A stretch of 64,000 nucleotides of DNA from a virus (IMGVR_UViG_2545824562_000002:1261-65260), one strand, 5' to 3'. Shown: positions 4,099 to 64,000, counted from the stretch's first letter. Numbers and translations: made by a program. The notes: generated from the letters alone by a model not told the origin.

Positions 4099-4344
4099 AT
4101 GGTGCCGAGACTGAATGAATTGGGGATCAAGCGTCGCTCCCCATACAACTGCCGTCACACCTATGCGACAATGCGCGCAATGTCCGGCCTCAACCCCGCA
4201 TTTATCGCCCAACAGCTGGGTCACAGCGTTCAGATGCTGCTGTCGACGTATGCCCGTTGGCTTAACTCAAGCTCCGACTGGAGCGAGCTGGAAAAGCTCA
4301 AGATTGGTATCAAATCGGTATCAGCTGAAAGCCCAGCGTCGTAA
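4099..4344 (+). pseudogene. C-terminal relic of a tyrosine integrase from an older element
   Basis: YNCRHTYATM...NPAFIAQQLGHSVQMLLSTYARW aligns by eye with the C-terminus of the integrase at 62786-64000; N-terminal ~320 aa missing. Confidence 0.9.
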
Positions 4345-4364: not shown

Positions 4365-4393
4365 TTGATCTCCACCGCTAACATCACCATGCG
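4365..4393 (+). other. attL core: first codons (MISTANITM) of a disrupted ABC-F ATPase (YbiT-like) gene
   Basis: TTG ATC TCC ACC GCT AAC ATC ACC ATG C matches the recalled N-terminus MISTANITMQFG of Pseudomonas ABC-F; the frame breaks right after. Confidence 0.75.
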
Positions 4394-4497: not shown

Positions 4498-4770
4498 GAT
4501 CGCTCGCAGTTTTGAGACCTAGGCCGAGCGGTTTCCCGGATTTGCAATCCGGGTTGTATTTCCTTGTATTTCAGAAGCTTACAAATATTTCGATTCCGCA
4601 TCGAAGCGTTTTGAACTGCGCTGCAAGCCAATAAAATCAAGGGGTCGCTAGTCAGTTGCGGAACTGATTTGGGTCTCCTTTCGTCCGGTTTGCAGTGCTG
4701 CACGAATGCGCCTAAGACAACCTCAGCACCGGCTTAACCCATTTCGCCCCCCCAAGAGCAGTGACTGACG

Positions 4771-4793
4771 TCTACCGTCAACATCACCATGCG
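4771..4793 (+). repeat. Degenerate second copy of the att core
   Basis: TCTACCGTCAACATCACCATGCG vs TCCACCGCTAACATCACCATGCG at 4371-4393. Confidence 0.7.
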
Positions 4794-5147
4794 CTATGCC
4801 ATGGGGTTTAGCGGGTGGGGATGTGTTGATTTTGCTGGCCCAAACTACCCTTGCCCCCTCACGGAAATACATCAGTTGGTTCGGGAATTGGTCCGGCGAT
4901 CAACCATGAACTCCCGTGCCGGAAACGCACAACCCTCACAGAACCTGCGCGGCACCTAGTGATGGACCGGTAGTTTCTTAACTCCCAAATCGATATCAAA
5001 GTCAAAAAAGCTATAGCTGAATATACTAACGCTTTACCTCTGGTAGTCTAACTTAAGATTTAATACGTTACGCGCACAAAATTATATCGCTCAAATAATT
5101 AGCGAACCTAAAATCGCTTGACCTTTACCTCATGAACCCTAGTACCC

Positions 5148-5585
5148 ATGACACAGGCCTCTATCATGTCAGAAATAACCGAAACCTCTTTGCTTGAGTT
5201 GATGAATCAGCCAAACCTGCAATGCGACATTACTAATGCAGCATTTCAAAACAATGTTGCTGCAGCCCACAGGGTTCATATAATCGCAATAGGAGCAATA
5301 GTTAAATATGAAGATGGGACCACTCAGCAGCTGGGGCCAAAGAGCGTTGATTTAACAAGTGGGCAGTCTACCGTTTTAATGTCGGCATGCTCATCGAAAT
5401 GTTGCAAAAGCGTTTTTGGGACCATAACCGTTCGCCAAGAAGGTCGGAACGATACAAAAACTGTTTCAGCGACCAAATACCCTTCCGGTCCTGACAGATG
5501 CCTTTTGCAAGCTTCATTTGTATTAGGTGTAACAAATCCTGCAGCTACGGACATCAGCTTAGATTCCACACTTGATTTTTCTTAA
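5148..5585 (+). CDS. Hypothetical Cys-containing moron protein
   Basis: 145-aa ORF in an AT-rich island, beta-strand-like composition. Confidence 0.65.
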   Translation: MTQASIMSEITETSLLELMNQPNLQCDITNAAFQNNVAAAHRVHIIAIGAIVKYEDGTTQQLGPKSVDLTSGQSTVLMSACSSKCCKSVFGTITVRQEGRNDTKTVSATKYPSGPDRCLLQASFVLGVTNPAATDISLDSTLDFS

Positions 5586-5603
5586 TATCGAAGGGACGAC
5601 AAC

Positions 5604-5894
5604 ATGACCAGCTTTCGCTATAGCCTCGTACTGGTCGCAACCATTGGCTTAACGCCGTTTTTTCAAGTAGAGGCAGCGACTGGGCCAGCCTGTATAAAAA
5701 ACAAAAACGCCAATGCATCAATTTTTGTTAGCGTGCGCTGGCCTGGCGGCCAAACTAACTTTGAGCTCAGGCCGCTAGAAACTCACCGACTTGACAACAT
5801 GAATGATGCAGATACTGTAGTATGCGTAGACAAGAAGCCGCCACCACCCTATTCTTGCCCAAACCAACAAAAAGTGCCCATTAACAACTGCTAA
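5604..5894 (+). CDS. Putative secreted small protein with 4 Cys
   Basis: Signal-peptide-like MTSFRYSLVLVATIGLTPFFQVEAA; AAGGGA RBS; hairpin at ~5920-5942 downstream. Confidence 0.65.
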   Translation: MTSFRYSLVLVATIGLTPFFQVEAATGPACIKNKNANASIFVSVRWPGGQTNFELRPLETHRLDNMNDADTVVCVDKKPPPPYSCPNQQKVPINNC

Positions 5895-6193
5895 AAAGCA
5901 ACATTCAGAATAACTGATTGGTGATGATGCATTACCATCACCGCATGCGAGAGTGCGACCTTAATTACGTTGTGTTCCCCCATCAATGGGACAAAAGGTA
6001 AGAACTTTTGTGCACACACCAATGATGCAGCAGTAGCGGAAAAAATCGACCTCAGGCCGCGCCCCCTGCGGCCTGCGAATCGAGCCTGTCTAATATGGTT
6101 CGGCCAGTTTCGGCGACTTTCGCCCAGTAAAACCGGGATGGTTTTGAGCGGTTTTAGACACCCAGCACCACCCTCCTCCGGCGTTCTGCCGAC

Positions 6194-6409
6194 CTACTCC
6201 AAATCCTTCTCAGACTCATCCAGCGCCCATAGCCTGGCCGACTCGACGATCTCCAGCATGTCGATCAGGTCACCGTCATCGACCTCTCGCCGCCGGCGTG
6301 CGGCATAGGCCATCTCATCGAGCACTGCTGCGCGTCGATCGGGATCAGCCACCAGGGCAACCTGGTCGTTCAGCTCAGCCAGCCAGGCCTGCGGAAGCTC
6401 AGTTGCCAT
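6194..6409 (-). CDS. Phage hypothetical protein (paralog of 8002-8229)
   Basis: [12 protein letters not shown]...DPDRRAAVL...DMLE...ARLWAL. Confidence 0.75.
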
Positions 6410-6483
6410 AATCGCCCACCGCCCTGCACCACCACGACTGGCCGTTAAGCCCCCCTTCCATCTCCTCGACACGTTTCTCGTCT

Positions 6484-7632
6484 TCAGCGAAGCGCATATT
6501 CAATCTCAGCGAGATTCACCCCGGAACGATATAGCAACCCACAAACGTGCTCGTAAAAAATTTTCAGATCTTTGCAATATATAGACTTGTTCCGAAACCC
6601 ATCTTTAACACTATATCGATGCGTAAGCTGCCCTCCGCAGCATATACGCTCGTAGGCACAACCACCGCAAGCTAAGGGCACCTCATCCGCACCTAAAGAC
6701 GATAGCTTCACTTCATTACTATCAAAGGCTTCCATCAAACCGTTCGACGACAGATTCATTCCAAGATCAACTACATGATCTCCACATGGACGGAGGAAGT
6801 CATCGCCGTTTATATCTCCATCGCTTAACACGGTCAGCGCTGTCGATCGTGCCGGGCCGAAGCCCCCTAGTAAAGAGTGGCGACCGAGCAAAAGCGAAAC
6901 GGTCGACGTCAAAATGCGGATATCTACACTCCCCTGCCCGTAGCAAAGCCAATGATCAAGCAACAAACATAGATACTCACCACAGCCCCTCGAAGTTCCA
7001 ATTATTGGATTTTCGCAGGTGGCATCCGGCAACAAAAAATCCATATTTTTTATACCAAGATCATTGACTACAAAATCATACACCACAGCAGGATCTACTG
7101 CTGGCTGTATTACTATCAACGCGCCTGGGGGGCTTATCTTTTCAGCCTTAGCCGCGCCAACCAATTTGTGTATTCCAGCAACGGTTTTGTCAAAGGTTGC
7201 TCTCCCGCGCTTATCAAGCCTAAAACGATCGTGGACTTCTCTTGGCCCATCGACTGACACCCCAACGCCAATCTTAAATTCTTGAAATATCTCAATCCAC
7301 TCATCATCCACAAGCATTGCATTTGTTTGCATGCACAAAGCAACTTTTTTGTTTGCTGAAATGATCGACATCAATTCAAGACAAAGCGCCCGAAAACGAA
7401 CTTTACCGAAAAGTAGAGGCTCCCCTCCATGGAATATTATTCGAACAGAATCGCAAAAACCATTCAGCAACGCATCTTGAATCCTAGCTTTCAGAATTGG
7501 GACTGACTCATCCAAAAACCTCCACGGCCGCGTTAACGCACTCCTATCATCATTCTCGAAATAGTAACAGTAGGTGCAAGCTATATTGCACCTTTCTGTT
7601 AGCTTTAATATTATCTCCAGTCGCCCGACCAT
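6484..7632 (-). CDS. Radical SAM/SPASM cyclophane-forming peptide maturase (XyeB/3-CyFE-like)
   Basis: [18 protein letters not shown] (CxxxCxxC), [31 protein letters not shown]-terminal [20 protein letters not shown]; likely start ATG 7632, 4 nt after the precursor stop. Confidence 0.88.
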
Positions 7633-7636
7633 TTCA

Positions 7637-7813
7637 CTAGAAGCTCTTTGTCCAAGAGATCCAGGCATCAAAGTCTTGAGTCGTTGCTCCTTTAAGATCA
7701 TCTAAAAACTTTTTGCTAACGGTCGGCCCGGCATTGGACCCGGTTTTTACATCTGCACCTGCTTTTTTAAGCTTTTCCAAGAGCTCGGCAATCTCATCAC
7801 TTTTATCAACCAT
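7637..7813 (-). CDS. RiPP precursor peptide (triceptide/xenorceptide-like), 58 aa
   Basis: GGAG RBS then MVDKSDEIAELLEKLKKAGADVKTGSNAGPTVSKKFLDDLKGA-TTQDFDAWISWTKSF; double-glycine-type leader end and an aromatic-every-third-residue core. Confidence 0.85.
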   Translation of the reverse strand: MVDKSDEIAELLEKLKKAGADVKTGSNAGPTVSKKFLDDLKGATTQDFDAWISWTKSF

Positions 7814-8001
7814 GACCAATCGCTCCATGACACTTAGCATTAGAGGAACTGCGATTACAAAAACAATGCTAGATACTAATTGTGTCAAGTCCAGAGAAAA
7901 GCAAAATCATTTTGCTATTACACTTCTTTTCTTATTCAAATTATTTATTACAGGAGCCATTGATGTGCCAAACTCATAGAAAGCTCTGACACCAAATTGA
8001 C

Positions 8002-8229
8002 TCAGAGCGGTTCGCATGACTGGTCATGCGCGAGCGCCCACAGCCTGGCCGCCTCAGCAAACTCCAGCATGTCAGTCAGCTGATCGGCGCCAACATCGCC
8101 CCGTCGGTGCGCAGATATAGCGAGTTCAGCAAGCACAGCTGCACGCCCATCGGGATCAGTCACTATCGCCGACTGGTCATTCAGCTCGGCCAACCAAGCC
8201 GCTGGCAGGCTCAACACTTGACTGTCCAC
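8002..8229 (-). CDS. Phage hypothetical protein overlapping the umuC stop
   Basis: [12 protein letters not shown]...DPDGRAAVL...[14 protein letters not shown]. Confidence 0.75.
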
Positions 8230-9485
8230 AGCTGATCGATCCGCGTGGTATAGGATTGGCTCATCATCTCCCTCCTCATTCCCCAGTCCGGCGTCGCCGG
8301 AACACTGGCAGCCCGCATAGTCCCCCTCCCCCAGCGCTCGTTGATGTCATCCATCACCTTCATCAGTCGGTCACATGCCACCGACTGCTTGAGCGTGAAC
8401 AAGTCCTCTGAAAACTCACCTGATTGCCGCAGGTCCATCAGCAGCACCTCAGCCTTGCTGTAGCGGAACCCGGGCCTAAAGATCCGCTCGACCGCATCGG
8501 TGGCCAGTCGAGTCATCAGCAGCGTGTCGCAGGTTGGGTAAGGAAGCTCTACCAGCGCACCCTGGGCGTGATGCGCTTCTTCCGGATTGAACATCCCGGT
8601 ACGGATGCTGATTCGCATGCGCTTGCAAACTGACCCTTGAGCCCGGAGTTTCTCCGCGGCGCGGCCAACGTAAGTGGCCACGGCCTGTTTGATCGGTGCC
8701 AGCTCAGTAAGCCGCTTTCCGAACATCCGACTGCAGCAGATCTCCTGTTTCGGCGGTTCGGCCTCGTCAAGTTCAAGGCATGGCGTGCCAGCGAGCTCTC
8801 GGGCCGTCTTTTCAACCACAACGCTGAACTTCTGGCGAAGTGTCCAGGCGTCAGCTTTGGCAAGGTCCATGGCTGTGCGGATGCCCATCGCTTCAAGGTG
8901 AGCGGTCATACACCGACCAATGCCCCAAACTTCCTTCACCTCGGTATTGCGCAACACCCAATCACGCTTGAACGGATCGGTGATGTCGACCACGCCACCC
9001 GTCTGTGCCTGCAGGCGCTTGGCCGTATGGTTGGCCAGCTTCGCGAGCGTCTTCGTGCCAGCAATGCCGACGCCCACCGGAATTCCCGTGCACTGGAAAA
9101 TCCTCGAGCGCACCTTCCGCCCGAACTGAGTCAGATTTTCCTGAATACCGGACAAGTCAGCGAAGCATTCGTCGATGCTGTAGATCTCGGTGGCCGGCAC
9201 CATGGACTCGATCAGGGTCATGACTCGCTCGCTCATGTCGCCGTACAGCGCGTAATTGCTGCTGAAGGCCATGATGCCGTGCCGGCGCAGCTTGTCCTTC
9301 GCCTGGAAATACGGCTCGCCCATCTTCACGAATGGCTTTGCGTCGTAGGACCTAGCGATTACACAGCCATCGTTGTTGCTCAGCACAACAATTGGGGTCT
9401 TGGCCAGGTCCGGCCGGAACACGCGCTCGCAGCTCGCGTAGAACGAGTTGCAATCGATCAGCGCGAACACCTGGTCACTGCGCAT
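8211..9485 (-). CDS. umuC: Y-family DNA polymerase V subunit UmuC/RulB
   Basis: [34 protein letters not shown]-terminal [14 protein letters not shown]. Confidence 0.95.
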
Positions 9486-9903
9486 GGTCGCGCACGCTAT
9501 AACGCACAACGCCCCAAACGACGAGCTCATCGCCTTCCATGATGTACCGCGGAGGATACGCCGGGTTCTCCGACTTCAGTATGACCACGCCGTCACGACG
9601 GTGCAGTCGCTTGCATACCGGCTCACTGTTGACCGCGGCAATGACCACATCCCCGTGTTCAGCCTCGCGGCCGCGATCGACGATGACGATGTCACCGGAG
9701 TAGATCCCAGCCCCTTGCATGCTATCGCCTTCCACTTTCACCAGATACACATGTGGCGCGCGGAGGTCGAATAACTCATCAAGGGAAATATGGCCTTCCA
9801 AGTGGTCTGCAGCAGGCGACGGAAATCCGGCCGGCACACGAAAGGAATACAGCGGAAGCGAATCGGTACCGCCGATTGGTGTGCCCAAGAAAGTGATAGT
9901 CAT
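9475..9903 (-). CDS. umuD: UmuD/RulA S24 autopeptidase
   Basis: VPAGFPSPAAD cleavage motif, GDSM, VCKRL. Confidence 0.95.
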   Translation of the reverse strand: MTITFLGTPIGGTDSLPLYSFRVPAGFPSPAADHLEGHISLDELFDLRAPHVYLVKVEGDSMQGAGIYSGDIVIVDRGREAEHGDVVIAAVNSEPVCKRLHRRDGVVILKSENPAYPPRYIMEGDELVVWGVVRYSVRDHAQ

Positions 9904-9923
9904 GGTGGAAGGTCCGAAGCAAA

Positions 9924-9939
9924 CTGTATGCATATACAG
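9924..9939. promoter_or_regulatory. LexA (SOS) box between divergent umuD and SRAP
   Basis: CTGTATGCATATACAG fits CTG-N10-CAG. Confidence 0.9.
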
Positions 9940-10006
9940 TAAATCCGGCATCGGCTGCCCGGTCAATCCTGGGCGATGAAAATTCTGACAGGCGAGAGGG
10001 GTGATT

Positions 10007-10726
10007 ATGTGCGGACGGTACTCGATCTATGAGGCGATGGATCACTATCTGCGCCAGCTATCGCTGGACCTGGTAGTAATCAATGGCTACGACCATGAAC
10101 CGATCAGGCGCTTCAATGTGGCGCCTTCGACCCGGGTCGAGGTCATTCGCAGAGTAGACGAGGGGCTGAGCGTGGATAGGGTCAAGTGGGGATGGTCGCC
10201 TTTCTGGGCGAAGGGGAAACGCCCGGACCCGATCAATGCCCGGGCAGAGACGGCGGTAATGGGAAAGTTCTTCAAGGCTCTGTGGCCGAATGGAAGAGCT
10301 TTGGCACCGGCAAATGGCTGGTTCGAATGGGTTCCAGATCCTGCAGACCCGAAGCGAAAGCAGCCCTACTACATCACGAGCGCCGATGGCGGACCGCTAT
10401 TTTTTGCCGCGCTCGCAGAAGTACATCAGGGTCTGGAGCCAGATGAGCGAGATGGATTTGTCGTCATCACAGCCGCTGCTGATCAAGGCCTGATCGACAT
10501 CCACGACAGAAAGCCCTTGGTGCTCTCGCCTGAAACCGCAAGGGAATGGCTGGATCCAGCCACATTAGGCGAGCGCTTGGAAGCCATTGTCGAGGCTGGA
10601 TGCCGGCCGGCACAGGACTTCCGATGGTTTCCAGTTGGCAAGGCGGTGGGGAATGTTAGGAACCAAGGCCCCGAATTGATTGAACCTGTCAGTGAACAGA
10701 ACCGCCAGGGCGACCTAGAGCTCTGA
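10007..10726 (+). CDS. SOS response-associated peptidase (SRAP/YedK/HMCES family)
   Basis: N-terminal MCGRY, INARAET, GWFEW, IHDRKPLVL. Confidence 0.93.
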   Translation: MCGRYSIYEAMDHYLRQLSLDLVVINGYDHEPIRRFNVAPSTRVEVIRRVDEGLSVDRVKWGWSPFWAKGKRPDPINARAETAVMGKFFKALWPNGRALAPANGWFEWVPDPADPKRKQPYYITSADGGPLFFAALAEVHQGLEPDERDGFVVITAAADQGLIDIHDRKPLVLSPETAREWLDPATLGERLEAIVEAGCRPAQDFRWFPVGKAVGNVRNQGPELIEPVSEQNRQGDLEL

Positions 10727-10901
10727 GCTGGTAGTCGTTAACCGCCTGGAACTGCGATTCGGCAATTAGCCGCAAGCGCTCGACCGTTTCGGGAGAATCG
10801 CCTGCCGCCTGAGCTTCGTGGTACCGCTTCATCGCAGCCACAGCATCGCGGTACATGGGGTCATCGGGTAGCAGGGGTGGCGATTTTTCGCTCATTTGCA
10901 T
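10689..10901 (-). CDS. Small helical phage protein (ERLRLxAESxF family, copy 1)
   Basis: ETVERLRLIAESQFQAVNDYQ. Confidence 0.65.
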   Translation of the reverse strand: MQMSEKSPPLLPDDPMYRDAVAAMKRYHEAQAAGDSPETVERLRLIAESQFQAVNDYQLRALGRPGGSVH

Positions 10902-10916
10902 CCACCGTGGCCGGTG

Positions 10917-11126
10917 TCATTGAATGGTGGATGGTGGCTGACCAGCCGCGACCAGCTGGTAGTCAATGGCTGCATTGTAAAGCGAGTCGGCCAGCAGGCG
11001 TAGGCGCTCAATTTCGTCGATGGACGCACCATCCTCCTCGGCTGCTCGATGAGCACGAATAGCTTCCAAGGCTTGACGAAGCAGGGGTTCGCCGGCGAGA
11101 GCTATGCCTTCCAATGTTCTTTTCAT
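10917..11126 (-). CDS. Small helical phage protein (copy 2)
   Basis: GEPLLRQALEAIRAH...EIERLRLLADSLYNAAIDYQ. Confidence 0.7.
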   Translation of the reverse strand: MKRTLEGIALAGEPLLRQALEAIRAHRAAEEDGASIDEIERLRLLADSLYNAAIDYQLVAAGQPPSTIQ

Positions 11127-11138
11127 CGTCTGCTCCAG

Positions 11139-11401
11139 CTATGGGGCCAGAGCATTATAGGACGATTCACATAGCTGCCCCGCTATTCGGGCTCGGTCAT
11201 AAGCTTTTGCCAGCTCTCCCGCTCGTGCATCAGCCCGGTCGCGCAGTTCGGAGAGCACCATGGCGGCGCGGGTGGCTGCCTGGCCTCTGGCGACAGCGGC
11301 GGTTTCCGAGCCGGGGCAACTGTCGGTGGCAACGAACCGGCCGACTTCACTGCGCAACCGCTGGCCAGCAGCATCGGTGCCAACATCCTTAAAATCAGCA
11401 C
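11139..11401 (-). pseudogene. Duplicated 3' half of Rz with an embedded second Rz1-like lipoprotein ORF (11183-11401)
   Basis: ARGQAATRAAMVLS...YDRARIAG..CE.SYNAL and MLLASGCAV..PPLSPEARQPPAPPWCSP, near-identical to 12486-12769. Confidence 0.85.
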
Positions 11402-11508
11402 TTGCTCAGACCTCGCGAGTGCCTTTTTTGTGTAAAATCTGCCGCTTTGGCTGGGGAATGCCAGCTTTATGACAGCCTACGTGATCACTATGCCAAAGCG
11501 GTAATGCC

Positions 11509-12289: not shown

Positions 12290-12472
12290 TCACCATAAAC
12301 TGGTAACCGGACCCAACCTGAAAAAGCGACTCGGCCAGCAGCCGTAGGCACTCGATCTCTTAAGATGGGGCGCCACCGTATTCGCTTCGTGGATTCGGCG
12401 CAGTGCGTCGATTGCTTGTTGAATCAGCGGCTTGCCTGCCTCGACCATCCCGATGGACGTCCGCTTGTCCAC
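12290..12472 (-). pseudogene. Frameshifted paralog of 10917-11126 (copy 3)
   Basis: MDKRTSIGMVEAGKPLIQQAIDALRRIHEA matches; similarity is lost in-frame after about codon 30. Confidence 0.6.
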
Positions 12473-12485
12473 AGTCCTGCTCCGG

Positions 12486-13001
12486 TCAGTTGATCAACGC
12501 ATTATAGGATGCTTCACACGCGAGCCCCGCTATTCGGGCGCGGTCATAAGCCTGCGCCAGCTCTCGATTCGTAGCGACAGACCGCTCGAGCAGGTCGGAG
12601 AGCACCATGGCGGCGCGGGTGGCTGCCTGGCCTCGGGCGATAGCGGCGGTATCCGGGCCGGGGCAACTGACGGCGGCAGCGAATTGGGTGGCGTCACTGC
12701 GCAGCCGCTTGCCAGCAGCATCGGCGTCAGCAGCGCCAGCATCAGCAATCGTTCGTTCTTCCTGGGCATGGGCTCTCGCCTCCTCTTGCACCGTGGCGCG
12801 TCGTTGTTCTTCCTGCCGAGCGCCTCGCTCGCCGATCACTTCGGCCAGCCGGTCACCACTGTCTCGTTGCGCCGATGCCTGGCCAGCCTCTGCTCGCTCA
12901 ATCGACCGACCATGCTGGTATATGCCCCAGTAGGAGGCGACCACCAGGAGCACGACCAGTAAGCGCAGCGGGAGTGAAAGTTTCGCTACCAGCTGTCCCA
13001 T
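12486..13001 (-). CDS. Rz: Inner-membrane spanin Rz-like (DUF2514-type)
   Basis: N-terminal TM, Ala-rich coiled coil, ARIAGLACEASY end, located downstream of the endolysin. Confidence 0.85.
   Translation of the reverse strand: MGQLVAKLSLPLRLLVVLLVVASYWGIYQHGRSIERAEAGQASAQRDSGDRLAEVIGERGARQEEQRRATVQEEARAHAQEERTIADAGAADADAAGKRLRSDATQFAAAVSCPGPDTAAIARGQAATRAAMVLSDLLERSVATNRELAQAYDRARIAGLACEASYNALIN
12530..12769 (-). CDS. Rz1: Embedded outer-membrane spanin Rz1-like lipoprotein
   Basis: Lipobox LASGC, Pro-rich, nested out of frame in Rz. Confidence 0.75.
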   Translation of the reverse strand: MPRKNERLLMLALLTPMLLASGCAVTPPNSLPPSVAPARIPPLSPEARQPPAPPWCSPTCSSGLSLRIESWRRLMTAPE

Positions 13002-13302
13002 GCTGCCTCCCACTCTGGAAGGTCGACCGTTTGCCCGGCCAGGTCATGGGTGCTGTCGGCTAGATACTGGATTCGACCGTCTGTCACGAAGGAATGGCAG
13101 ACCGTTTCTTTATTGCCGTGCGATACCGGGACAGCACAGACGGAGTGAAGGTCGGCGCGTCAGCATTCTCGTTGTACCCCCAGCGCGGCCCATGGCCTGC
13201 GCCCACGTTCATGCTATGCGGCAGGTTGCAACCATTGCAGAAGAACCACAGCGATCCGTCATCGGCCTGGCCCAGGCAGCGGCCTATCGTTTTGATGGTC
13301 AT
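12986..13302 (-). pseudogene. DUF6527-like protein split by a 1-nt frameshift
   Basis: FFCNGC..H...RWGYN...PTFTPSVL in one frame; VCHSFVTDGRIQYLADSTHDLAGQTVDLPEW in another; junction ~13115. Confidence 0.7.
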
Positions 13303-13787
13303 GCCAGCACCCCGCCAAGCTCTTTCCACTTGGCCAACAGCTTGTCCAGTCGGTGTGGGTTCTGCCCGTAGGTGTTGCCCGGAAAGCTGGCCCAGATGTT
13401 CGAGCACTTAGCGATGGCCTGCTGGATACGGCCGGCCTTGATGTCATCCAGCGCACGGCGCTCGCGGATCTGCTGGAGAGCAATGCGGTCCTGGTTCTCC
13501 GGTATAAATCCGCCTTGCAATCCCAAGCTTACTCGATAGGCGTCCCAGTAACGCTCAAGAAGTTGGTATCGTCCAGCAGCGGTGCTGGTGACCGATTTAC
13601 CGTTGATGGGAAAGGTAAGCTTTCGACGAGGGTGATCAGCATAGTCACGGAACAGGCTGCCCCCATAAAGCACGTTATAACCGTCATCGCTGGCCTTGAC
13701 CGTCGAGGTACCTTCAGACCAGGCAAGCAAGTCGAGAAATGCCAGCACGTTGAGACCGCCGACGGCAGTAGAATTAAGTCGAGCCAT
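13299..13787 (-). CDS. Endolysin, lambda-R-type lytic transglycosylase
   Basis: AFLDLLAWSEGT, STAAGRYQLL, QDRIALQQIRE, CSNIWASFPG. Confidence 0.93.
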   Translation of the reverse strand: MARLNSTAVGGLNVLAFLDLLAWSEGTSTVKASDDGYNVLYGGSLFRDYADHPRRKLTFPINGKSVTSTAAGRYQLLERYWDAYRVSLGLQGGFIPENQDRIALQQIRERRALDDIKAGRIQQAIAKCSNIWASFPGNTYGQNPHRLDKLLAKWKELGGVLA

Positions 13788-43462: not shown

Positions 43463-44177
43463 GGTAATTGCCCTCGACCACCTTCACGAAGTTGGAAGGG
43501 GCAATCAGCCAATCGAACGTTGCCCGGAAGGGTTTGGCACCATTCCTGCCATCGATCTTGCCCATCAGGAAATCGCTGCCGGCAACAGTGGTGAAGAAAT
43601 CACGCCAGAACTCAAGGTCTTGGTGGACAGGGCTTTCCGCCCAGCGTGCCTTTATCTTTGCTGAGCGGTCTTTGTTGATCAGAACCACGCTCGGCAGAGT
43701 TGGCAGCAGTTCGTTGAACAGGCCGACGATTTGATCGACTGGCACCGAATTCAACGCCTCGCGCATGCTCGCGGTATCTCCTGACGGTTCCTTGATGGTT
43801 CCTTTACGGTTCTGGGGGCACGTGGTGCCGGGGTGAGGGGCATCTGGTGCCGGGGTGGGGGGCATTTCCTGCCGGGGTTCCCCGGCATCTGCTGCCGGGG
43901 GGCACGTGGTGCCGGGGTCGTAGCTGGATGGGCTCACGGTGTACCAGGTGGAACGGCCTGTTCGATGGTGAGCAGACAACACTCCAGACTGCTCCAACCA
44001 GCGCAAGGCGTTGCGTACGGCACGCTCGGACAGGCAGGTGCGCTCTACGATACGAGCCACCGAAGGCCAGCAGACGCCGTCGTCGTTTGAGTTGTCGGCA
44101 AGGGATATCAGCACGGACTTCTGGGCCGGACTCATACCCTGGAGTGGCCAACAAGCCGTCATGATGATCGTGCTCAT
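43455..44177 (-). CDS. Replication initiator (O-like, N-terminal HTH)
   Basis: KSVLISLADNSNDDGVCWPSV..I...T.LSERAV; ATFDWLI...NFVKVVEGNY. Confidence 0.88.
   Translation of the reverse strand: MSTIIMTACWPLQGMSPAQKSVLISLADNSNDDGVCWPSVARIVERTCLSERAVRNALRWLEQSGVLSAHHRTGRSTWYTVSPSSYDPGTTCPPAADAGEPRQEMPPTPAPDAPHPGTTCPQNRKGTIKEPSGDTASMREALNSVPVDQIVGLFNELLPTLPSVVLINKDRSAKIKARWAESPVHQDLEFWRDFFTTVAGSDFLMGKIDGRNGAKPFRATFDWLIAPSNFVKVVEGNYHA
43815..43917. repeat. Replication origin iterons (5 copies) inside the initiator gene
   Basis: GGCA-N5-TGCCGGGG repeated at about 43815, 43837, 43859, 43882 and 43899. Confidence 0.8.
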
Positions 44178-44829: not shown

Positions 44830-45636
44830 ATGAATGAATCACTGAGCCAGCGCATTAAGCGCTTGAGAAAAGCGACGGGAATGTCCCAGGCCCAGCTGGC
44901 AGATGCTTGCGGCTGGAAATCGCAGTCACGCGTCGGAAACTATGAAGCCGGTACGCGAGAGCCAACGCTGGCGGATATTGCCGCTATGGCAGCTGCCCTT
45001 GGAGTCGACCAATCCGAGCTACTCCTGAGCTCTGCGGCAGTGACCGAGGTTTCGGCGCCAGCCCGGAGTACGACTGATCTTGTCAGGCAGATGCTCGCAA
45101 AGAGCGGCAAAGGCATTCCGGAAGAGGCCCGTCAGCGCCTCCTTGCTGCGGCTGAGGAGCCGAGCGCCAGCAATGTCGTCGCGGCTGACTTCGTTCGCCC
45201 AGGCCTCGTGGGCGATGAGGTGTGGATTGCTCACTACGACGTGCGCGGAGCAATGGGCGATGGTGAAGTAGCTCACGACTTCCCTGAAATGCTGCAGGAC
45301 ATTCGCGTCAGCCCTACTCACCTGCGAGAGATGGGGGTGGAGTTCAAAGAGCATTTCCATCTGAAGCTCATAACGGGTGTCGGTCAGTCCATGGCGCCAA
45401 CCATCAAGAGCCGCGACCCGCTGGTCGTTGACATCAGCATCCGTGAGTTCGTGGGCGACGGGATCTACTACTTCTCCCATCAGGGCCATCAGTACATCAA
45501 GCGCCTGCAGAAGAAGGGTCGCGATCATTTCAAGATGATCTCGGACAACACGAATCATCCGCCTGAAGACATCCGGGTTGATGAGACCTACATCCAGGCC
45601 AGGGTGCTCCTGGTATGGAATGCCCACCTGGTCTAG
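44830..45636 (+). CDS. cI: CI repressor (XRE HTH + S24 peptidase)
   Basis: SQAQLADACGWKSQSRVGNYE; GQSMAPTI; YIKRLQ. Confidence 0.93.
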   Translation: MNESLSQRIKRLRKATGMSQAQLADACGWKSQSRVGNYEAGTREPTLADIAAMAAALGVDQSELLLSSAAVTEVSAPARSTTDLVRQMLAKSGKGIPEEARQRLLAAAEEPSASNVVAADFVRPGLVGDEVWIAHYDVRGAMGDGEVAHDFPEMLQDIRVSPTHLREMGVEFKEHFHLKLITGVGQSMAPTIKSRDPLVVDISIREFVGDGIYYFSHQGHQYIKRLQKKGRDHFKMISDNTNHPPEDIRVDETYIQARVLLVWNAHLV

Positions 45637-56810: not shown

Positions 56811-57060
56811 ATGTCCACGGCAATCGACCTGTTCGCCGGCCTCGGCGGATGGAGCACCGCAGGCGTCCATGTTCTCTGGGCAGCAAACCACTGGCCGGTA
56901 GCCGTCTCCCCTACACAGCCCGCTTGCCAGGACCTACACCTAACTCGCTGGGAGCATGTGCCCCCGCTCGACATCCTACAGGCATCGCACGCGAAAGCTC
57001 GCGGAAAGAAGTCATACCACCCGGAGCACAACGCATCGCGCACGACGACCTGTGCATCTC
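56811..57060 (+). pseudogene. Decayed N-terminus of a C5 DNA methyltransferase
   Basis: MSTAIDLFAGLGGWST motif I, WAANHWPVAV, CQDLH; the catalytic PC motif is deleted (DILQAS-HAKARGK) and the gene is truncated. Confidence 0.8.
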
Positions 57061-58255
57061 ACTGGAGCTTGCCCTTATAGACCTCAGACCGGTGGTAACT
57101 CAGGTAGCCTCGCTGCTCTACTGTGAAGTCCCCAACATTCATGCCAGACGCCAATCCCCATGCTGACACAACCTCCTTCGCAGGATCGGCAACCAGCAAT
57201 TCCCCATCATCCAAGAACGTTATCCAGCCTCGGTCAAACAGCTTATCCACATGTGGCGCCAACATGAGTCCATTGTTACCGTCCAAACGCTCAAGGTTCG
57301 AGCAATCCTTCCAAGGTTTGATGTGGCTAGCGATCAGGAATCGCTTATCGGAAACCCCAGTCAGACGGCACGACTTCTCACGGTCCAGTACCTGAAGGCG
57401 GAATGTTCCCTGGCCGACACGCGAGCGGACCAACTGTTCGCGCTCAGTAGCAGCCAGTTCCTGATTTAGCTGGATTTCACGCTCAGCTTCGTCCGCTCTT
57501 ACCTGGTCTTCCAGTTCATGAACCCGCTCGATAATCGCGCTCCCAGCACTATTAGATAGGCGGAGAATGAAGGAGCCTAGCTCGGGCGAGATACTAGCGA
57601 GGTAACATCCCTGGTTACCGTTGCCATTAGCTTGCAAAGGGGAGTTTTTCGCAGGCAAGAGACTTGAAATAGCAGTAATGTGATCCTTAGGCAAAACAGC
57701 CTTGTCCAGTACGGTCCACTCGATAGGAACTAACCATCCCGTATCAGACCAATTCTGGCCGGCTTGACCAAAGGCTTCCGGCTTCGTCTGTTCGGTATAA
57801 ACAGAAGTCGCAACGCCGATAGCCCGGATCTGCCCTCCAGCGTAGGAAATGACAACGTCGCCGGCTCTAACCAGCGTCAGGTTGATGTATGTCTGGTTTC
57901 GAGCGCCATTTTTATTTTTTGTGGGTGACCAGATGTAGCCCCCTTCAAGTTCGGCTTGGTAAGTCTGCTTATGATTGACCCACCAGAAGCCTGAAATCTC
58001 TTGCTCGCGTGAGTGCCGTTCAAAAACTACAACCTCTGCACTCAAGTCAAGGGACTTGCGCTCCCAACCAGCTTCGATCCAAAGATGCGCCCAGGTGTGT
58101 GAATCATCAGTCCTGGAATTTGCCCACCAAGCGTTGTGATTTCTCGCGACCGGTGGCAGACCGCCCACTAGCTCATCAATTTGCGCGAAGGTCAGTTCAA
58201 CGGAGTTAACAGTCTGGGACCGAAGAAAATCGGCCAGGGGCATGTACTTACTCAC
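57059..58255 (-). CDS. HNH endonuclease with N-terminal sensing domains (type IV restriction-like)
   Basis: KYMPLADFL..LTFAQIDELVG.LP..WWAN domain; WWVNHKQT...GGYIWSP...GDVVISY (EVE/PUA-like); RVGQGTFR..CRLTG..LIASHIKPW..NGLMLAPHVDKLFDRG. Confidence 0.85.
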   Translation of the reverse strand: MSKYMPLADFLRSQTVNSVELTFAQIDELVGGLPPVARNHNAWWANSRTDDSHTWAHLWIEAGWERKSLDLSAEVVVFERHSREQEISGFWWVNHKQTYQAELEGGYIWSPTKNKNGARNQTYINLTLVRAGDVVISYAGGQIRAIGVATSVYTEQTKPEAFGQAGQNWSDTGWLVPIEWTVLDKAVLPKDHITAISSLLPAKNSPLQANGNGNQGCYLASISPELGSFILRLSNSAGSAIIERVHELEDQVRADEAEREIQLNQELAATEREQLVRSRVGQGTFRLQVLDREKSCRLTGVSDKRFLIASHIKPWKDCSNLERLDGNNGLMLAPHVDKLFDRGWITFLDDGELLVADPAKEVVSAWGLASGMNVGDFTVEQRGYLSYHRSEVYKGKLQ

Positions 58256-62570: not shown

Positions 62571-62945
62571 ATGCACTCAAAAAGGAAAAAGCCGGGCGAC
62601 GAAAATGCCGGGCAAGAACAAGCCGTTGCCCAGGAAATGGACAAGGTGACGGAAGAGAAGATGGCCGAACTGCTGGGTATTACGCTGCGCGCGCTTCAAA
62701 CCAGGCGCCAGCGCGGGAAGATCCCTGAGGGCGTCTGGAATAGACACGGCCGCAACATCATGTACAGCAGATGGAGATATGAGGAATGGCTCGAAAGCCT
62801 GTGGGTCTGCCCCTTGGAATTGAAATCCGAGGAGACTCGCTCCGAATCCGTTTCACTTGGAACGGTGAGCGTCGCGGGGAAACCGTCGCACATCCCCCGA
62901 CAGCGCAGGGGATCAAAGCTGCCAGCCGTTTACGTGATCAAGTAG
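62571..62945 (+). CDS. xis: Putative excisionase (winged HTH)
   Basis: EEKMAELLGITLRALQTRRQRGKIPEGVW, overlapping the integrase start. Confidence 0.7.
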   Translation: MHSKRKKPGDENAGQEQAVAQEMDKVTEEKMAELLGITLRALQTRRQRGKIPEGVWNRHGRNIMYSRWRYEEWLESLWVCPLELKSEETRSESVSLGTVSVAGKPSHIPRQRRGSKLPAVYVIK

Positions 62946-64000
62946 TCAACCTCATTCGGCACAACTTGCTTGATGACGAGAAGTACGCCGAGCTCTTCCC
63001 GGGCTCGGAGGCGGCGCGGCAAGCTGCTGACGCTATTCCCAGCCTGGGTGCCTACACACAGATGTGGCTGGATAGTCGAGACATTGTTCAGGGCACCCGG
63101 GACAACTACAAGAGCGTCTTCAACATCTATTGGATGCCCTACCTCGGCTTACGCCGGATCGACATGATCACGCCGACCATGCTTCGTGGAGTTATCTCGC
63201 AGATTCAATGGACGTCGGTCGGGGTCAAGCGCAATGCAATCATCAAGCTGGCGAGCGTGTTCAAAACAGCGGTTTTCGACGGTTTGATCACCAAGAACCC
63301 CACCGCATCACTGGACAAACCTAGGGTTGTCAAAAAAGTTGTGGACCCTTACACCAGGTCGGAGGCAGAGACGATTATCTCGCACCTCTACGCGACTCTT
63401 CAGAAATACTGCCAGATCTACGCTGCGTTCTTCGAGTTTTGCTTCTTCACCGGGGTCCGGCCTGGCGAAGCCATGGGCCTGAAGTGGGAGGATGTCGACC
63501 TGGATCAGCGATCAGCAACGATTCGCCGGATCATCGTCAATCGGGCGCCTGAGGAGCGCACGAAGACCAAGTATCACCGGGTGGTGTTGCTCAACGAGCG
63601 CGCGCTGAACGCCATCAATCAGGCCCAGCGGATGGCGACACTTCGACGCATGGCATCCAAATCGGCCCACCCAGTAAGCCCTTTTGTGTTCCAACCGAGC
63701 AAAGGTGGGCTGTGGATCAACGAGCCAAGTGTTACAATCCGCCACTTCAAATCAGCGCTCAAGGCGCTGAACATCCGTGAACGCCGTCAGTACGACACCC
63801 GCCACACCTACGCAACCATGTGCCTAATGTCTGGGATGAACCCTGCGTTCATAGCGAACCAGCTTGGCCACAGCGTTGAGATGTTGCTTTCTACCTACGC
63901 GAAATGGATCAGCTCCTCCTCGGACTGGAGGGAGCTGGAGAAGCTGCCGCCCCGAGTCGAATTGGCCCAAAATTGGCCCAAAACTGACACGAAGGCCTAA
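62786..64000 (+). CDS. int: Prophage tyrosine integrase with N-terminal arm-binding domain
   Basis: GIEIRGDSLRIRF, TGVRPGE, TKT, YDTRHTYAT, QLGHS, TYAKW. Confidence 0.96.
   Translation: MARKPVGLPLGIEIRGDSLRIRFTWNGERRGETVAHPPTAQGIKAASRLRDQVVNLIRHNLLDDEKYAELFPGSEAARQAADAIPSLGAYTQMWLDSRDIVQGTRDNYKSVFNIYWMPYLGLRRIDMITPTMLRGVISQIQWTSVGVKRNAIIKLASVFKTAVFDGLITKNPTASLDKPRVVKKVVDPYTRSEAETIISHLYATLQKYCQIYAAFFEFCFFTGVRPGEAMGLKWEDVDLDQRSATIRRIIVNRAPEERTKTKYHRVVLLNERALNAINQAQRMATLRRMASKSAHPVSPFVFQPSKGGLWINEPSVTIRHFKSALKALNIRERRQYDTRHTYATMCLMSGMNPAFIANQLGHSVEMLLSTYAKWISSSSDWRELEKLPPRVELAQNWPKTDTKA
63961..63982 (+). repeat. Putative integrase arm-type sites (right), inside the int 3' end
   Basis: ATTGGCCCAAA-ATTGGCCCAAA. 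Confidence 0.7.

Follow-up and report, generated by a model that had tools for sequence, protein, structure and literature searches.

A probable triceptide-type peptide cassette carried as cargo by a prophage, downstream of a LexA-boxed umuDC module

The stretch analysed here, called the window below, is 64,000 nt of viral DNA (IMGVR_UViG_2545824562_000002:1261-65260). It corresponds to bases 1261-65260 of an IMG/VR provirus record of 65,260 bp, and the record holds the provirus only. On its minus strand a LexA (SOS) box is followed in order by umuD, umuC, a small phage gene (A), a spacer, a gene for a short precursor peptide, a gene for a radical S-adenosylmethionine (rSAM) maturase and a second small phage gene (B). 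The precursor and maturase genes form a two-gene cassette for a peptide made on the ribosome and modified after translation (RiPP), which is very probably of the triceptide type and carried by the prophage as cargo. The original prediction had described this gene order as far as the maturase and had seen no obvious strong terminator in the gap before the precursor; both points were confirmed by open reading frames (ORFs), profile matches and a terminator scan. The cassette and the genes on either side of it are as follows.

7637-7813, minus strand: precursor, 58 aa, with the tail FDA-WIS-WTK-SF and a GGAG 9 nt upstream of the ATG
6484-7632, minus strand: radical SAM/SPASM maturase, 382 aa (PF04055), starting 4 nt after the precursor stop
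7814-8001, minus strand: AT-rich spacer of 188 bp, the beginning of a foreign insert
8002-8229, minus strand: small phage gene A (phrog_6137, E 5.7e-26), overlapping the umuC stop
6194-6472, minus strand: small phage gene B, a second phrog_6137 copy (E 7.2e-30), whose start is likely the ATG at 6409

The best NCBIfam models for the maturase were XyeB (268.6 bits, cut-off 450), YhhB (262.8 bits, cut-off 445) and FxsB (239.2 bits, cut-off 370). These matches had E values of 7e-80 to 7e-71 and covered residues 4-377; DynA and DarE reached 122 and 76 bits. The scores indicate that the maturase is homologous to the enzymes that form three-residue cyclophanes (3-CyFEs) and belongs to no named subfamily. 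The CxxxCxxC motif and the C-terminal Cys residues were invariant in an alignment of 24 clade members, and the window protein keeps all clade-invariant columns. It is 34.8% identical to XyeB of X. bovienii. In a quick tree, made with the careful search unfinished and with long branches flagged, it fell into a clade of 26 rows (SH-like approximate likelihood ratio test support 98) apart from XyeB, L011, P0047 and L006. PADLOC matched residues 8-135 to the radical SAM core of pVip, and this match was rejected as evidence of defence because the core is generic.

The window precursor was combined with three homologues found in metagenome loci into a profile, and a search with it gave 54 proteins with E <= 1e-3, 48 of them short. 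Three contiguous motifs, [FW]xA-W[VI/G][STA]-W[TSNP][KLM], followed by two residues, end 47 of the 49 family members, and the two final residues are SF in 29 of these 47. Four precursors and four maturase matches were located on contigs of identical size, which suggests that they are neighbours. No model in NCBIfam, which names XyeA-family triceptides, matched the 58-aa precursor at E <= 0.1. None of the strings WVSWTKSF, WISWTKSF and WVTWTKSF appeared in the main texts of the literature searched, the supplements of which may list the family. By these searches the precursor family is an uncharacterised one of about 50 sequence clusters, nearly all metagenomic, and together with the maturase it appears to be sister to, and outside, XyeA/XyeB. 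Precursors of other types stand beside related maturases in the metagenome loci L010 9118-9390, L032 702-863 and L029 1068-1361; they include His-rich cores (…HNSHNSHGDWGKHW…, …GGGLPHNSHNS…) and lie outside the WTKSF family.

Triceptides are described as three-residue cyclophanes formed on aromatic-X-X motifs by rSAM 3-CyFEs, with about 3,900 putative pathways (PMC11499958). The precursor adjacent to the maturase carries aromatic1-X2-X3 motifs, three of them as in the 47 members above. The top-scoring model, XyeB, leads to the XYE systems of Xenorhabdus, Yersinia and Erwinia. An XYE cluster consists of A, B, the aspartic protease C, the HlyD protein D and the protease-transporter E, with a Gly-Gly site, according to the available text of bioRxiv 10.1101/2024.12.16.628070. 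The annotated X. bovienii locus reads xyeA, xyeB, a hypothetical gene, HlyD and a peptidase-ABC transporter. Both sources agree with the original prediction that canonical xye clusters carry protease and transporter genes.

The cassette shares with these systems a precursor directly upstream of a radical SAM/SPASM cyclophane synthase, three aromatic-X-X motifs and the C-terminal W-T-K-S-F. Type A xenorceptides are reported to contain three rings together with a C-terminal W-T/S-K/R-S-F that is conserved and "comparable to darobactin A", and to act on BamA (bioRxiv 10.1101/2024.12.16.628070, available text). The motifs are contiguous here, whereas type A has spacers between them (aromatic-x4-aromatic-x2-aromatic). 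The leader is of another type without the conserved Gly-Gly, the record holds no aspartic protease, HlyD or peptidase-containing ABC transporter (PCAT), and the location is a prophage rather than an Enterobacterales chromosome or plasmid. Among five features of xye membership, the type A core with W-T/S-K/R-S-F was the only one found. The maturase scored below the curated score of TIGR04496 (XyeB equivalog), and an XyeA-family precursor, the conserved Gly-Gly site and the C, D and E genes in the cluster were all lacking. The view of the cassette as an xye cluster, on which the original prediction had drawn, was given up in the light of the XyeB score, the precursor without an NCBIfam match and the separate clade.

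Darobactin (darA-darBCD-darE) is likewise a Trp-rich peptide crosslinked by an rSAM enzyme; it ends in …W-(S/T)-K-S-F, and its cluster contains no protease. It is a bicycle of seven residues with a W1-x-W3 ether and a W3-K5 C-C bond, whereas the Trp residues here stand three apart, which predicts separate three-residue rings. The cassette also differs in having no follower peptide and no darBCD, and its maturase matches DarE weakly.

The genes upstream of the cassette form an SOS module with the following features.

9924-9939, between the divergent SRAP and umuD genes: LexA (SOS) box CTGTATATGCATACAG, from a motif scan
9938-9966, minus strand: promoter-like TTGACC (9966-9961)-17 nt-TTTACT (9943-9938), read by eye
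9475-9903, minus strand: umuD (PF00717, E 1.1e-31; NF007621, 121.7 bits, cut-off 110)
8211-9530, minus strand: umuC, Y-family polymerase (NF002955, 492.5 bits, cut-off 431, match from residue 21; IMS domains)
10007-10726, plus strand: SRAP gene, YedK-type (PF02586, E 1.4e-49), divergent from umuD and sharing its LexA box

UmuD is the S24 autoproteolytic subunit of DNA polymerase V. The longest ORF of umuC extends to 9530, and its start is likely the ATG at 9485, which overlaps the umuD stop. The LexA box is the sole CTGT-N8-ACAG in the window; 0.63 were expected and 46 of 100 shuffles contained at least one, so that the box alone is not beyond chance. We compared the module with 80 related viral loci, each encoding a UmuC at 73-96% identity. 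A CTGT-N8-ACAG box lies at most 200 nt upstream of umuD in 70 of 79 of them and is identical in 20. The -10 element of the promoter-like sequence is overlapped by the box, and we infer that this sequence is the umuD promoter. The consensus scan did not call it, as its rule demands an A at position 2 of the -10 element. The umuDC genes thus appear to have a LexA box at their promoter. The 80 loci contained umuD in 79 cases, a divergent SRAP gene in 54, and the maturase or the precursor in none. A single phrog_6137 gene follows umuC in 14 of the 80 and is 60-84% identical to A; of the 12 loci whose UmuC is at least 94% identical, 11 are among these 14, and the twelfth (L063) stops within umuC. 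Small gene A is hence a resident member of a conserved module.

The umuDC DNA was 72-81% identical to six plasmid records; because five of these are from Pseudomonas, the prophage host is probably Pseudomonas. Among 401 sampled genomes of the phylum, G096 had the closest UmuC (67%); its GTDB family served as a proxy for the host family, on the assumption that the two are the same. A maturase relative was found in one of 401 genomes of this probable host family, at 33% identity. The 34 genomes of the genus of G096 held none at E <= 1e-35, and three of them gave partial matches (E 1e-21 to 1e-24, 31-36% identity over at most 186 residues). The closest protein among 5.8 billion clusters was 64% identical, and a Delftia acidovorans protein (WP_333907319.1) was 52% identical. 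No relative above 29% identity was found in phage records, two IMG/VR scans gave nothing closer than 25%, and a scan of genome contigs with the maturase alone returned one distant locus. Metagenome relatives among the matches listed were at most 49% identical, apart from one piece of 21 residues at 76%. Within the collections searched, the cassette is the first phage-borne member of an undescribed triceptide family.

Downstream of the cassette the prophage end has the following features.

5148-5894, plus strand: two cargo ORFs of low GC (145 and 96 aa), oriented convergently to small gene B
4766-4793: second att-like copy (repeat D7), 82% identical, the probable end of the prophage proper
4366-4393: att-like core CGCATGGTGATGTTAGCGGTGGAGATCA (repeat D7), adjoining an integrase remnant
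4099-4344: C-terminal remnant of an integrase (PF00589, weakly, 19.3 bits, cut-off 27.1)

The segment 7001-8000 has 41.8% GC against about 58% around it, and none of the 80 related loci holds the rSAM gene or the precursor. DNA homology to the closest prophages runs from the SRAP gene to 8006-8035, at the end of small gene A, and then ends. The other boundary of the insert falls exactly at the rSAM stop codon, with small gene B 72 nt further downstream. In one sister prophage (L056), CGCATGGTGATGTTAGCGGTGGAGATCAA, which equals window 4393-4366, is found about 130 nt past the small gene. Because sister homology ends at small gene A and this att core follows so soon in L056, the segment of about 4793-8001 appears to be a variable cargo slot at the att-proximal end. 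In the contigs of two metagenome runs 4382 adjoins 4783 directly, so that other strains lack the 400 nt in between. The twin att-like copies, 400 nt apart, have the look of a scar left where integration took place at one site in tandem or in succession. Small genes A and B were considered as a recent target-site duplication; this was rejected, as their DNA similarity is restricted to the coding core and their proteins are 66% identical over 59 aa. The segment 5001-6000, with 43.8% GC, includes the 145-aa and 96-aa ORFs, which had no match in Pfam, NCBIfam, PADLOC or PHROG. The two ORFs are identical in plant-metagenome contigs (X5). The 96-aa ORF has a hydrophobic, signal-peptide-like beginning and a Cys- and Pro-rich end.

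The slot holds other genes in sister prophages: a PDC-S52/DUF6988 gene with a RiboL-PSP HEPN protein gene (L074), PDC-S06 AAA_13 ATPases (L062 and L074), GrpB and alginate lyase. These cargo loci are L074 7593-8915 and 10119-12731, L062 9831-12200, and L060 7690-8199 and 9121-9795. Several of the cargo genes are co-directional with umuDC. Three of four sister loci scanned showed no terminator-like site on the umuC strand from the small gene to the co-directional cargo, and in the fourth (L053) the sole such site comes after the cargo gene. L054, L055, L062 and L074 also contain the region 6193-6019, downstream of their own different cargo. The slot is therefore a hot spot downstream of a LexA-boxed umuDC module. 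Because sister cargo sits likewise, the co-directional position without a terminator belongs to the slot and not to the cassette; the idea that a position downstream of umuDC signals SOS coupling specific to the RiPP genes did not hold.

Foreign composition together with presence/absence polymorphism suggests that the cassette is strain-specific, horizontally acquired cargo. In these respects it resembles phage morons and cargo hot spots, being a low-GC insert in a hypervariable slot at a prophage end where sisters have differing genes. Unlike a typical moron, it has no clear terminator of its own right after the insert, the next hairpin lying only at 6040-6075, and no consensus promoter was called; a site found by a relaxed scan matches at 9 of 12 positions and has an extended -10. 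Prophage-borne bacteriocins of RiPP type are known as such. Sublancin, on the Bacillus prophage SPbeta, is an antibacterial of this kind carried as temperate-phage cargo (bioRxiv 10.1101/2020.10.01.322628, available text). It differs in being a glycocin with the transporter sunT, the immunity gene sunI and modification genes, in its Gram-positive host and in having no link to an SOS operon.

Cargo of this kind might also be a silent or incomplete passenger, a fragment of a larger cluster captured by recombination that either is unexpressed, as low-GC DNA in a high-GC host, or yields a dead-end modified precursor. The abrupt end of the insert at the rSAM stop with small gene B just beyond, the three further genes of related families and the absence of the cassette from all 80 sister loci would fit such a passenger. 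However, both ORFs are open and intact, the clade-invariant columns of the enzyme and the core of the precursor family are kept, and so are the ribosome-binding site and the 4-nt coupling. The whole stretch is also present in one further run of isolate type, whose listed pieces match the window exactly. In soil and plant metagenome contigs from two other studies, pieces of the cassette show 0-8 differences per 200-600 nt, and no indel is listed. Overall, the cassette occurs at 98-100% identity in the soil and plant metagenome contigs and in a third run, of isolate type. A silent passenger is accordingly quite improbable.

The sister cargo raises a different possibility, namely that the modified peptide, with its leader on or off, acts inside the lysogen, for example in anti-phage defence or signalling. 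The PDC-S52/DUF6988 and HEPN genes and the PDC-S06 AAA_13 genes in the slot of L062 and L074 point in this direction, the record lacks an exporter, and anti-phage lanthipeptides have reportedly been described in a preprint (10.1101/2024.06.26.600839). Against this, PADLOC sees only the generic core of pVip in the maturase, and the precursor and small genes match nothing there. The invariant aromatic tail at the C-terminus resembles extracellular BamA binders, and all characterised triceptides are cleaved before the first motif, as stated in the available text of PMC12912966. An intracellular role therefore has a slim chance.

The original prediction had pointed out that no peptidase-ABC transporter, HlyD or protease that would serve the cassette occurs in the window, and Pfam and tblastn searches upheld this for the provirus record. 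The 65,260 bp contained no Peptidase_C39, ABC_tran or HlyD_3 domain, a result that holds for the provirus record and not for the cell. In tblastn against the window, seven PCATs and two HlyD proteins found nothing, and four XyeC-type proteins gave nothing credible (best E 0.002, within a capsid-region ORF). The peptidase-family domains among the window ORFs scanned against Pfam, which were part of the total, were those of UmuD (S24), SRAP, a CI-like repressor (S24) and a ClpP-type head protease.

Such genes were then sought next to relatives of the cassette. Seven of seven chosen neighbours of about 700 aa near distant relatives with GG/GA leaders carried a C39 domain, an ABC membrane domain and an ABC ATPase, and two of two were HlyD. 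In L034, ORFs of 730 and 449 aa lie upstream of a precursor with a GGG leader and are known here from their lengths alone. For twenty loci of relatives one flank measured about 3 kb or more; tblastn found a PCAT within 10 kb in nine of them and none in 11, one of which (L051) comes from an unpublished genome (G384). The presence of a PCAT needed five changes on the quick maturase tree against a shuffled mean of 4.9, so it does not track the tree. A nearby PCAT is thus common, not universal, in the wider family.

These data bear on the possibility that the cassette is an orphan A+B module working in trans, with a host PCAT that cleaves after a G-A pair and exports the product. The window precursor does contain a G-A pair (…LKGA/TTQDF…), with hydrophobic residues at -4, -7 and -12, and the relatives with GG/GA leaders have an adjacent PCAT as counted above. 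C39 domains were found in 273 of the 401 genomes of the probable host family. The XncCDE export proteins are termed promiscuous in the available text of bioRxiv 10.1101/2024.12.16.628070. Many of the C39 matches, however, lie in frames of about 250-280 aa or may be C39-like domains of other exporters. A G[GAS] within 12 residues upstream of the core was found in 8 of 47 family members only, whereas a Pro within 7 residues was found in 29 of 47, and a double-glycine site seems to be free of family-wide constraint. Of the GA leader proposed earlier, the G-A pair itself stands and its status as a family feature does not. A borrowed C39 transporter is weakly founded since the pair is not conserved in the family, and we consider it very improbable.

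A minimal cassette offers a simpler account. In E. coli, darobactin formation needs darA and darE alone, the protease that matures it has not been identified and lies outside the biosynthetic gene cluster, and darBCD lifts the yield only 2-4 fold, according to the available text of PMC8442675. With this precedent and the 11 of 20 flanked loci without a nearby PCAT, the missing exporter and protease, which the original prediction had pointed out, most likely represent the normal state of a minimal cassette.

Transcription of the cassette involves the spacer and the following additional features.

6040-6075, minus strand: first terminator-like hairpin outside coding sequence (scan match 6059-6047)
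44830-45636, plus strand: CI-like repressor, helix-turn-helix and S24 peptidase domains (PF00717, PF13560, PF01381)
13299-13787, minus strand: endolysin (phrog_90, E 1.3e-55)
12486-13013, minus strand: Rz-like spanin (phrog_312, E 1.7e-40)

The 200 nt upstream of the precursor start have 37% GC. A consensus scan found no terminator-like site in the 188-bp spacer, and its sole hairpin (7935-7912) folds with -4.8 kcal/mol (z = 0). Between the LexA box and the 6040-6075 hairpin, the noncoding parts of the minus strand contain no terminator-like site, and the rSAM gene contains three weak matches; scan and fold found no terminator between the rSAM gene and small gene B. The 6040-6075 hairpin has an 8-bp GC stem (-17.9 kcal/mol) followed by UUUUUU. 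The consensus promoter scan called nothing in the spacer. The relaxed scan found TTGGCA (7971-7966), 16 nt and a TG-extended AATAAA (7949-7944), which is the 9/12 site mentioned above. A sigma-54-like TGGCAC-N5-TGGC (7970-7956, minus strand) was rejected as being at chance level, with 10 in the window at one mismatch against 6.7 expected. No upstream promoter motif was common to the window and three homologous loci. Because no terminator stops it, read-through from the LexA promoter is possible, and the cassette may be transcribed by such read-through, from a spacer promoter of its own, or both. SOS co-transcription with umuDC is thus possible.

Products without a secretion system that are LexA-controlled or coupled to induction, and are freed by lysis of the producer, are familiar from colicin operons and Stx prophages. 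By this analogy, which the original prediction had drawn, the cassette might be an SOS-timed weapon with no effective promoter of its own, expressed by umuDC read-through when DNA damage also cleaves the CI-like repressor, and released by the endolysin and spanin. The LexA box, the terminator-free minus strand up to 6040-6075 and the three of four sister loci without a terminator-like site before their cargo are consistent with this. The minus-strand RNA of this region is G-rich and C-poor (plus-strand GC skew -0.215) and would not be rut-like. The repressor family implies RecA/SOS-inducible prophage induction, a lysis cassette is present, the record has no exporter, and a target outside the cell demands an exit route. 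The comparison has limits, as colicins and Stx are proteins with proven SOS or late-phage promoters, whereas here the product is a small modified peptide for which co-transcription and release by lysis are only proposed. The position is that of a generic cargo slot, the spacer came with the insert and contains the promoter-like site with the extended -10, and darobactin provides a precedent for exit without lysis. RNA runs were also searched. None had more than 0.09 of the window's words, and the coverage of the sole run aligned (X21), which shows differences from the window, is limited to pieces of umuC and the spanin. An SOS-timed weapon is on balance unlikely. The more specific combination of a BamA-targeting "suicide weapon" of the phage, co-transcribed with umuDC in the SOS response, matured by host proteases and delivered by phage lysis, is distinctly unlikely.

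We therefore favour a minimal two-gene triceptide cassette, carried as prophage cargo, that makes an antibacterial peptide of BamA type with housekeeping processing; for this statement as a whole we put the probability at about 0.55. In each of F-D-A, W-I-S and W-T-K, the maturase would join the aromatic ring to the third residue by a crosslink at its C-beta. The product would be a rigid peptide of about 11-13 residues ending in W-T-K-S-F, a tail that would mimic xenorceptides and darobactin, which bind the lateral gate of BamA from the cell exterior. Its leader may be removed by housekeeping proteases, and the peptide may leave the cell by general efflux or lysis. Its most likely role is antibacterial, against Gram-negative competitors and to the gain of the lysogen or the phage. 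Full three-ring crosslinking would change the mass by -6.047 Da, that is, -2 Da per motif. The computed [M+2H]2+ values of three-ring products are 691.314 for FDAWISWTKSF, 748.828 for DFDAWISWTKSF and 812.857 for QDFDAWISWTKSF; the product of cleavage after G-A, TTQDFDAWISWTKSF, would give 913.905.

Several points weigh against the housekeeping-processed BamA-type peptide. Its only ties to BamA are the common C-terminal pentapeptide and the ring motifs, and chemistry, target and expression are predictions from sequence. The two-gene state as the native one of its own clade is a supposition. The slightly more distant WT-tailed relatives L002, L015 and L033 have an adjacent PCAT. The G-A of the window precursor is at a plausible double-glycine position, as in L002, where a PCAT is next door. 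Xenorceptide production used the CDE export genes, as reported in the available text of bioRxiv 10.1101/2024.12.16.628070. An island of 42% GC in a host of 58% GC could be silenced. The producer would need a BamA that is itself insensitive or protected, and an immunity gene is not apparent.

Further prophage genes were recognized by domain searches and Pfam.

62786-64000: integrase (domain search)
Prophage gene: DnaB helicase (domain search)
Prophage gene: ClpP-type head protease (Pfam)

A 21-nt repeat (GGGGGCACGTGGTGCCGGGGT and variants) occurs four times at 43814-43918, at spacings of 22, 22 and 40 nt. The copies sit within or adjoining an HTH_36 replication-type gene upstream of DnaB and resemble iterons or an origin. 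Part of the spanin region is duplicated together with a small gene upstream (11130-11407 and 12477-12754, 1,347 nt apart, 76-82% identity), and a trio of paralogous small genes lies around the duplication (10689-10901, with a phrog_9523 match; 10917-11126; 12290-12472). These features represent mosaic recombination adjoining the lysis cassette. Near the integrase end of the prophage, 57059-58255 (minus strand) encodes a protein of 398 aa in which DUF7662 is combined with an HNH_2 endonuclease domain, possibly a further accessory or defence gene.

If the cassette is constitutively expressed or silent, it is an ordinary moron with a new triceptide. As the sole phage copy in the collections searched, located in a slot where sister prophages have defence candidates, it bears on how phages arm their hosts. 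The juxtaposition of a LexA operon and a lysis cassette makes it a test case for a RiPP without an exporter that is released through SOS timing and lysis. If this proved true and BamA were the target, it would be the first example of a RiPP released in the manner of colicins or Stx, and its three contiguous three-residue rings would make the peptide a new natural scaffold of bamabactin type. With an invariant core in which three contiguous cyclophane motifs adjoin the W-T-K-S-F tail known from darobactin and xenorceptide, the 1.5-kb cassette is a concrete candidate for a further antibiotic in a sought-after class directed at Gram-negative bacteria.

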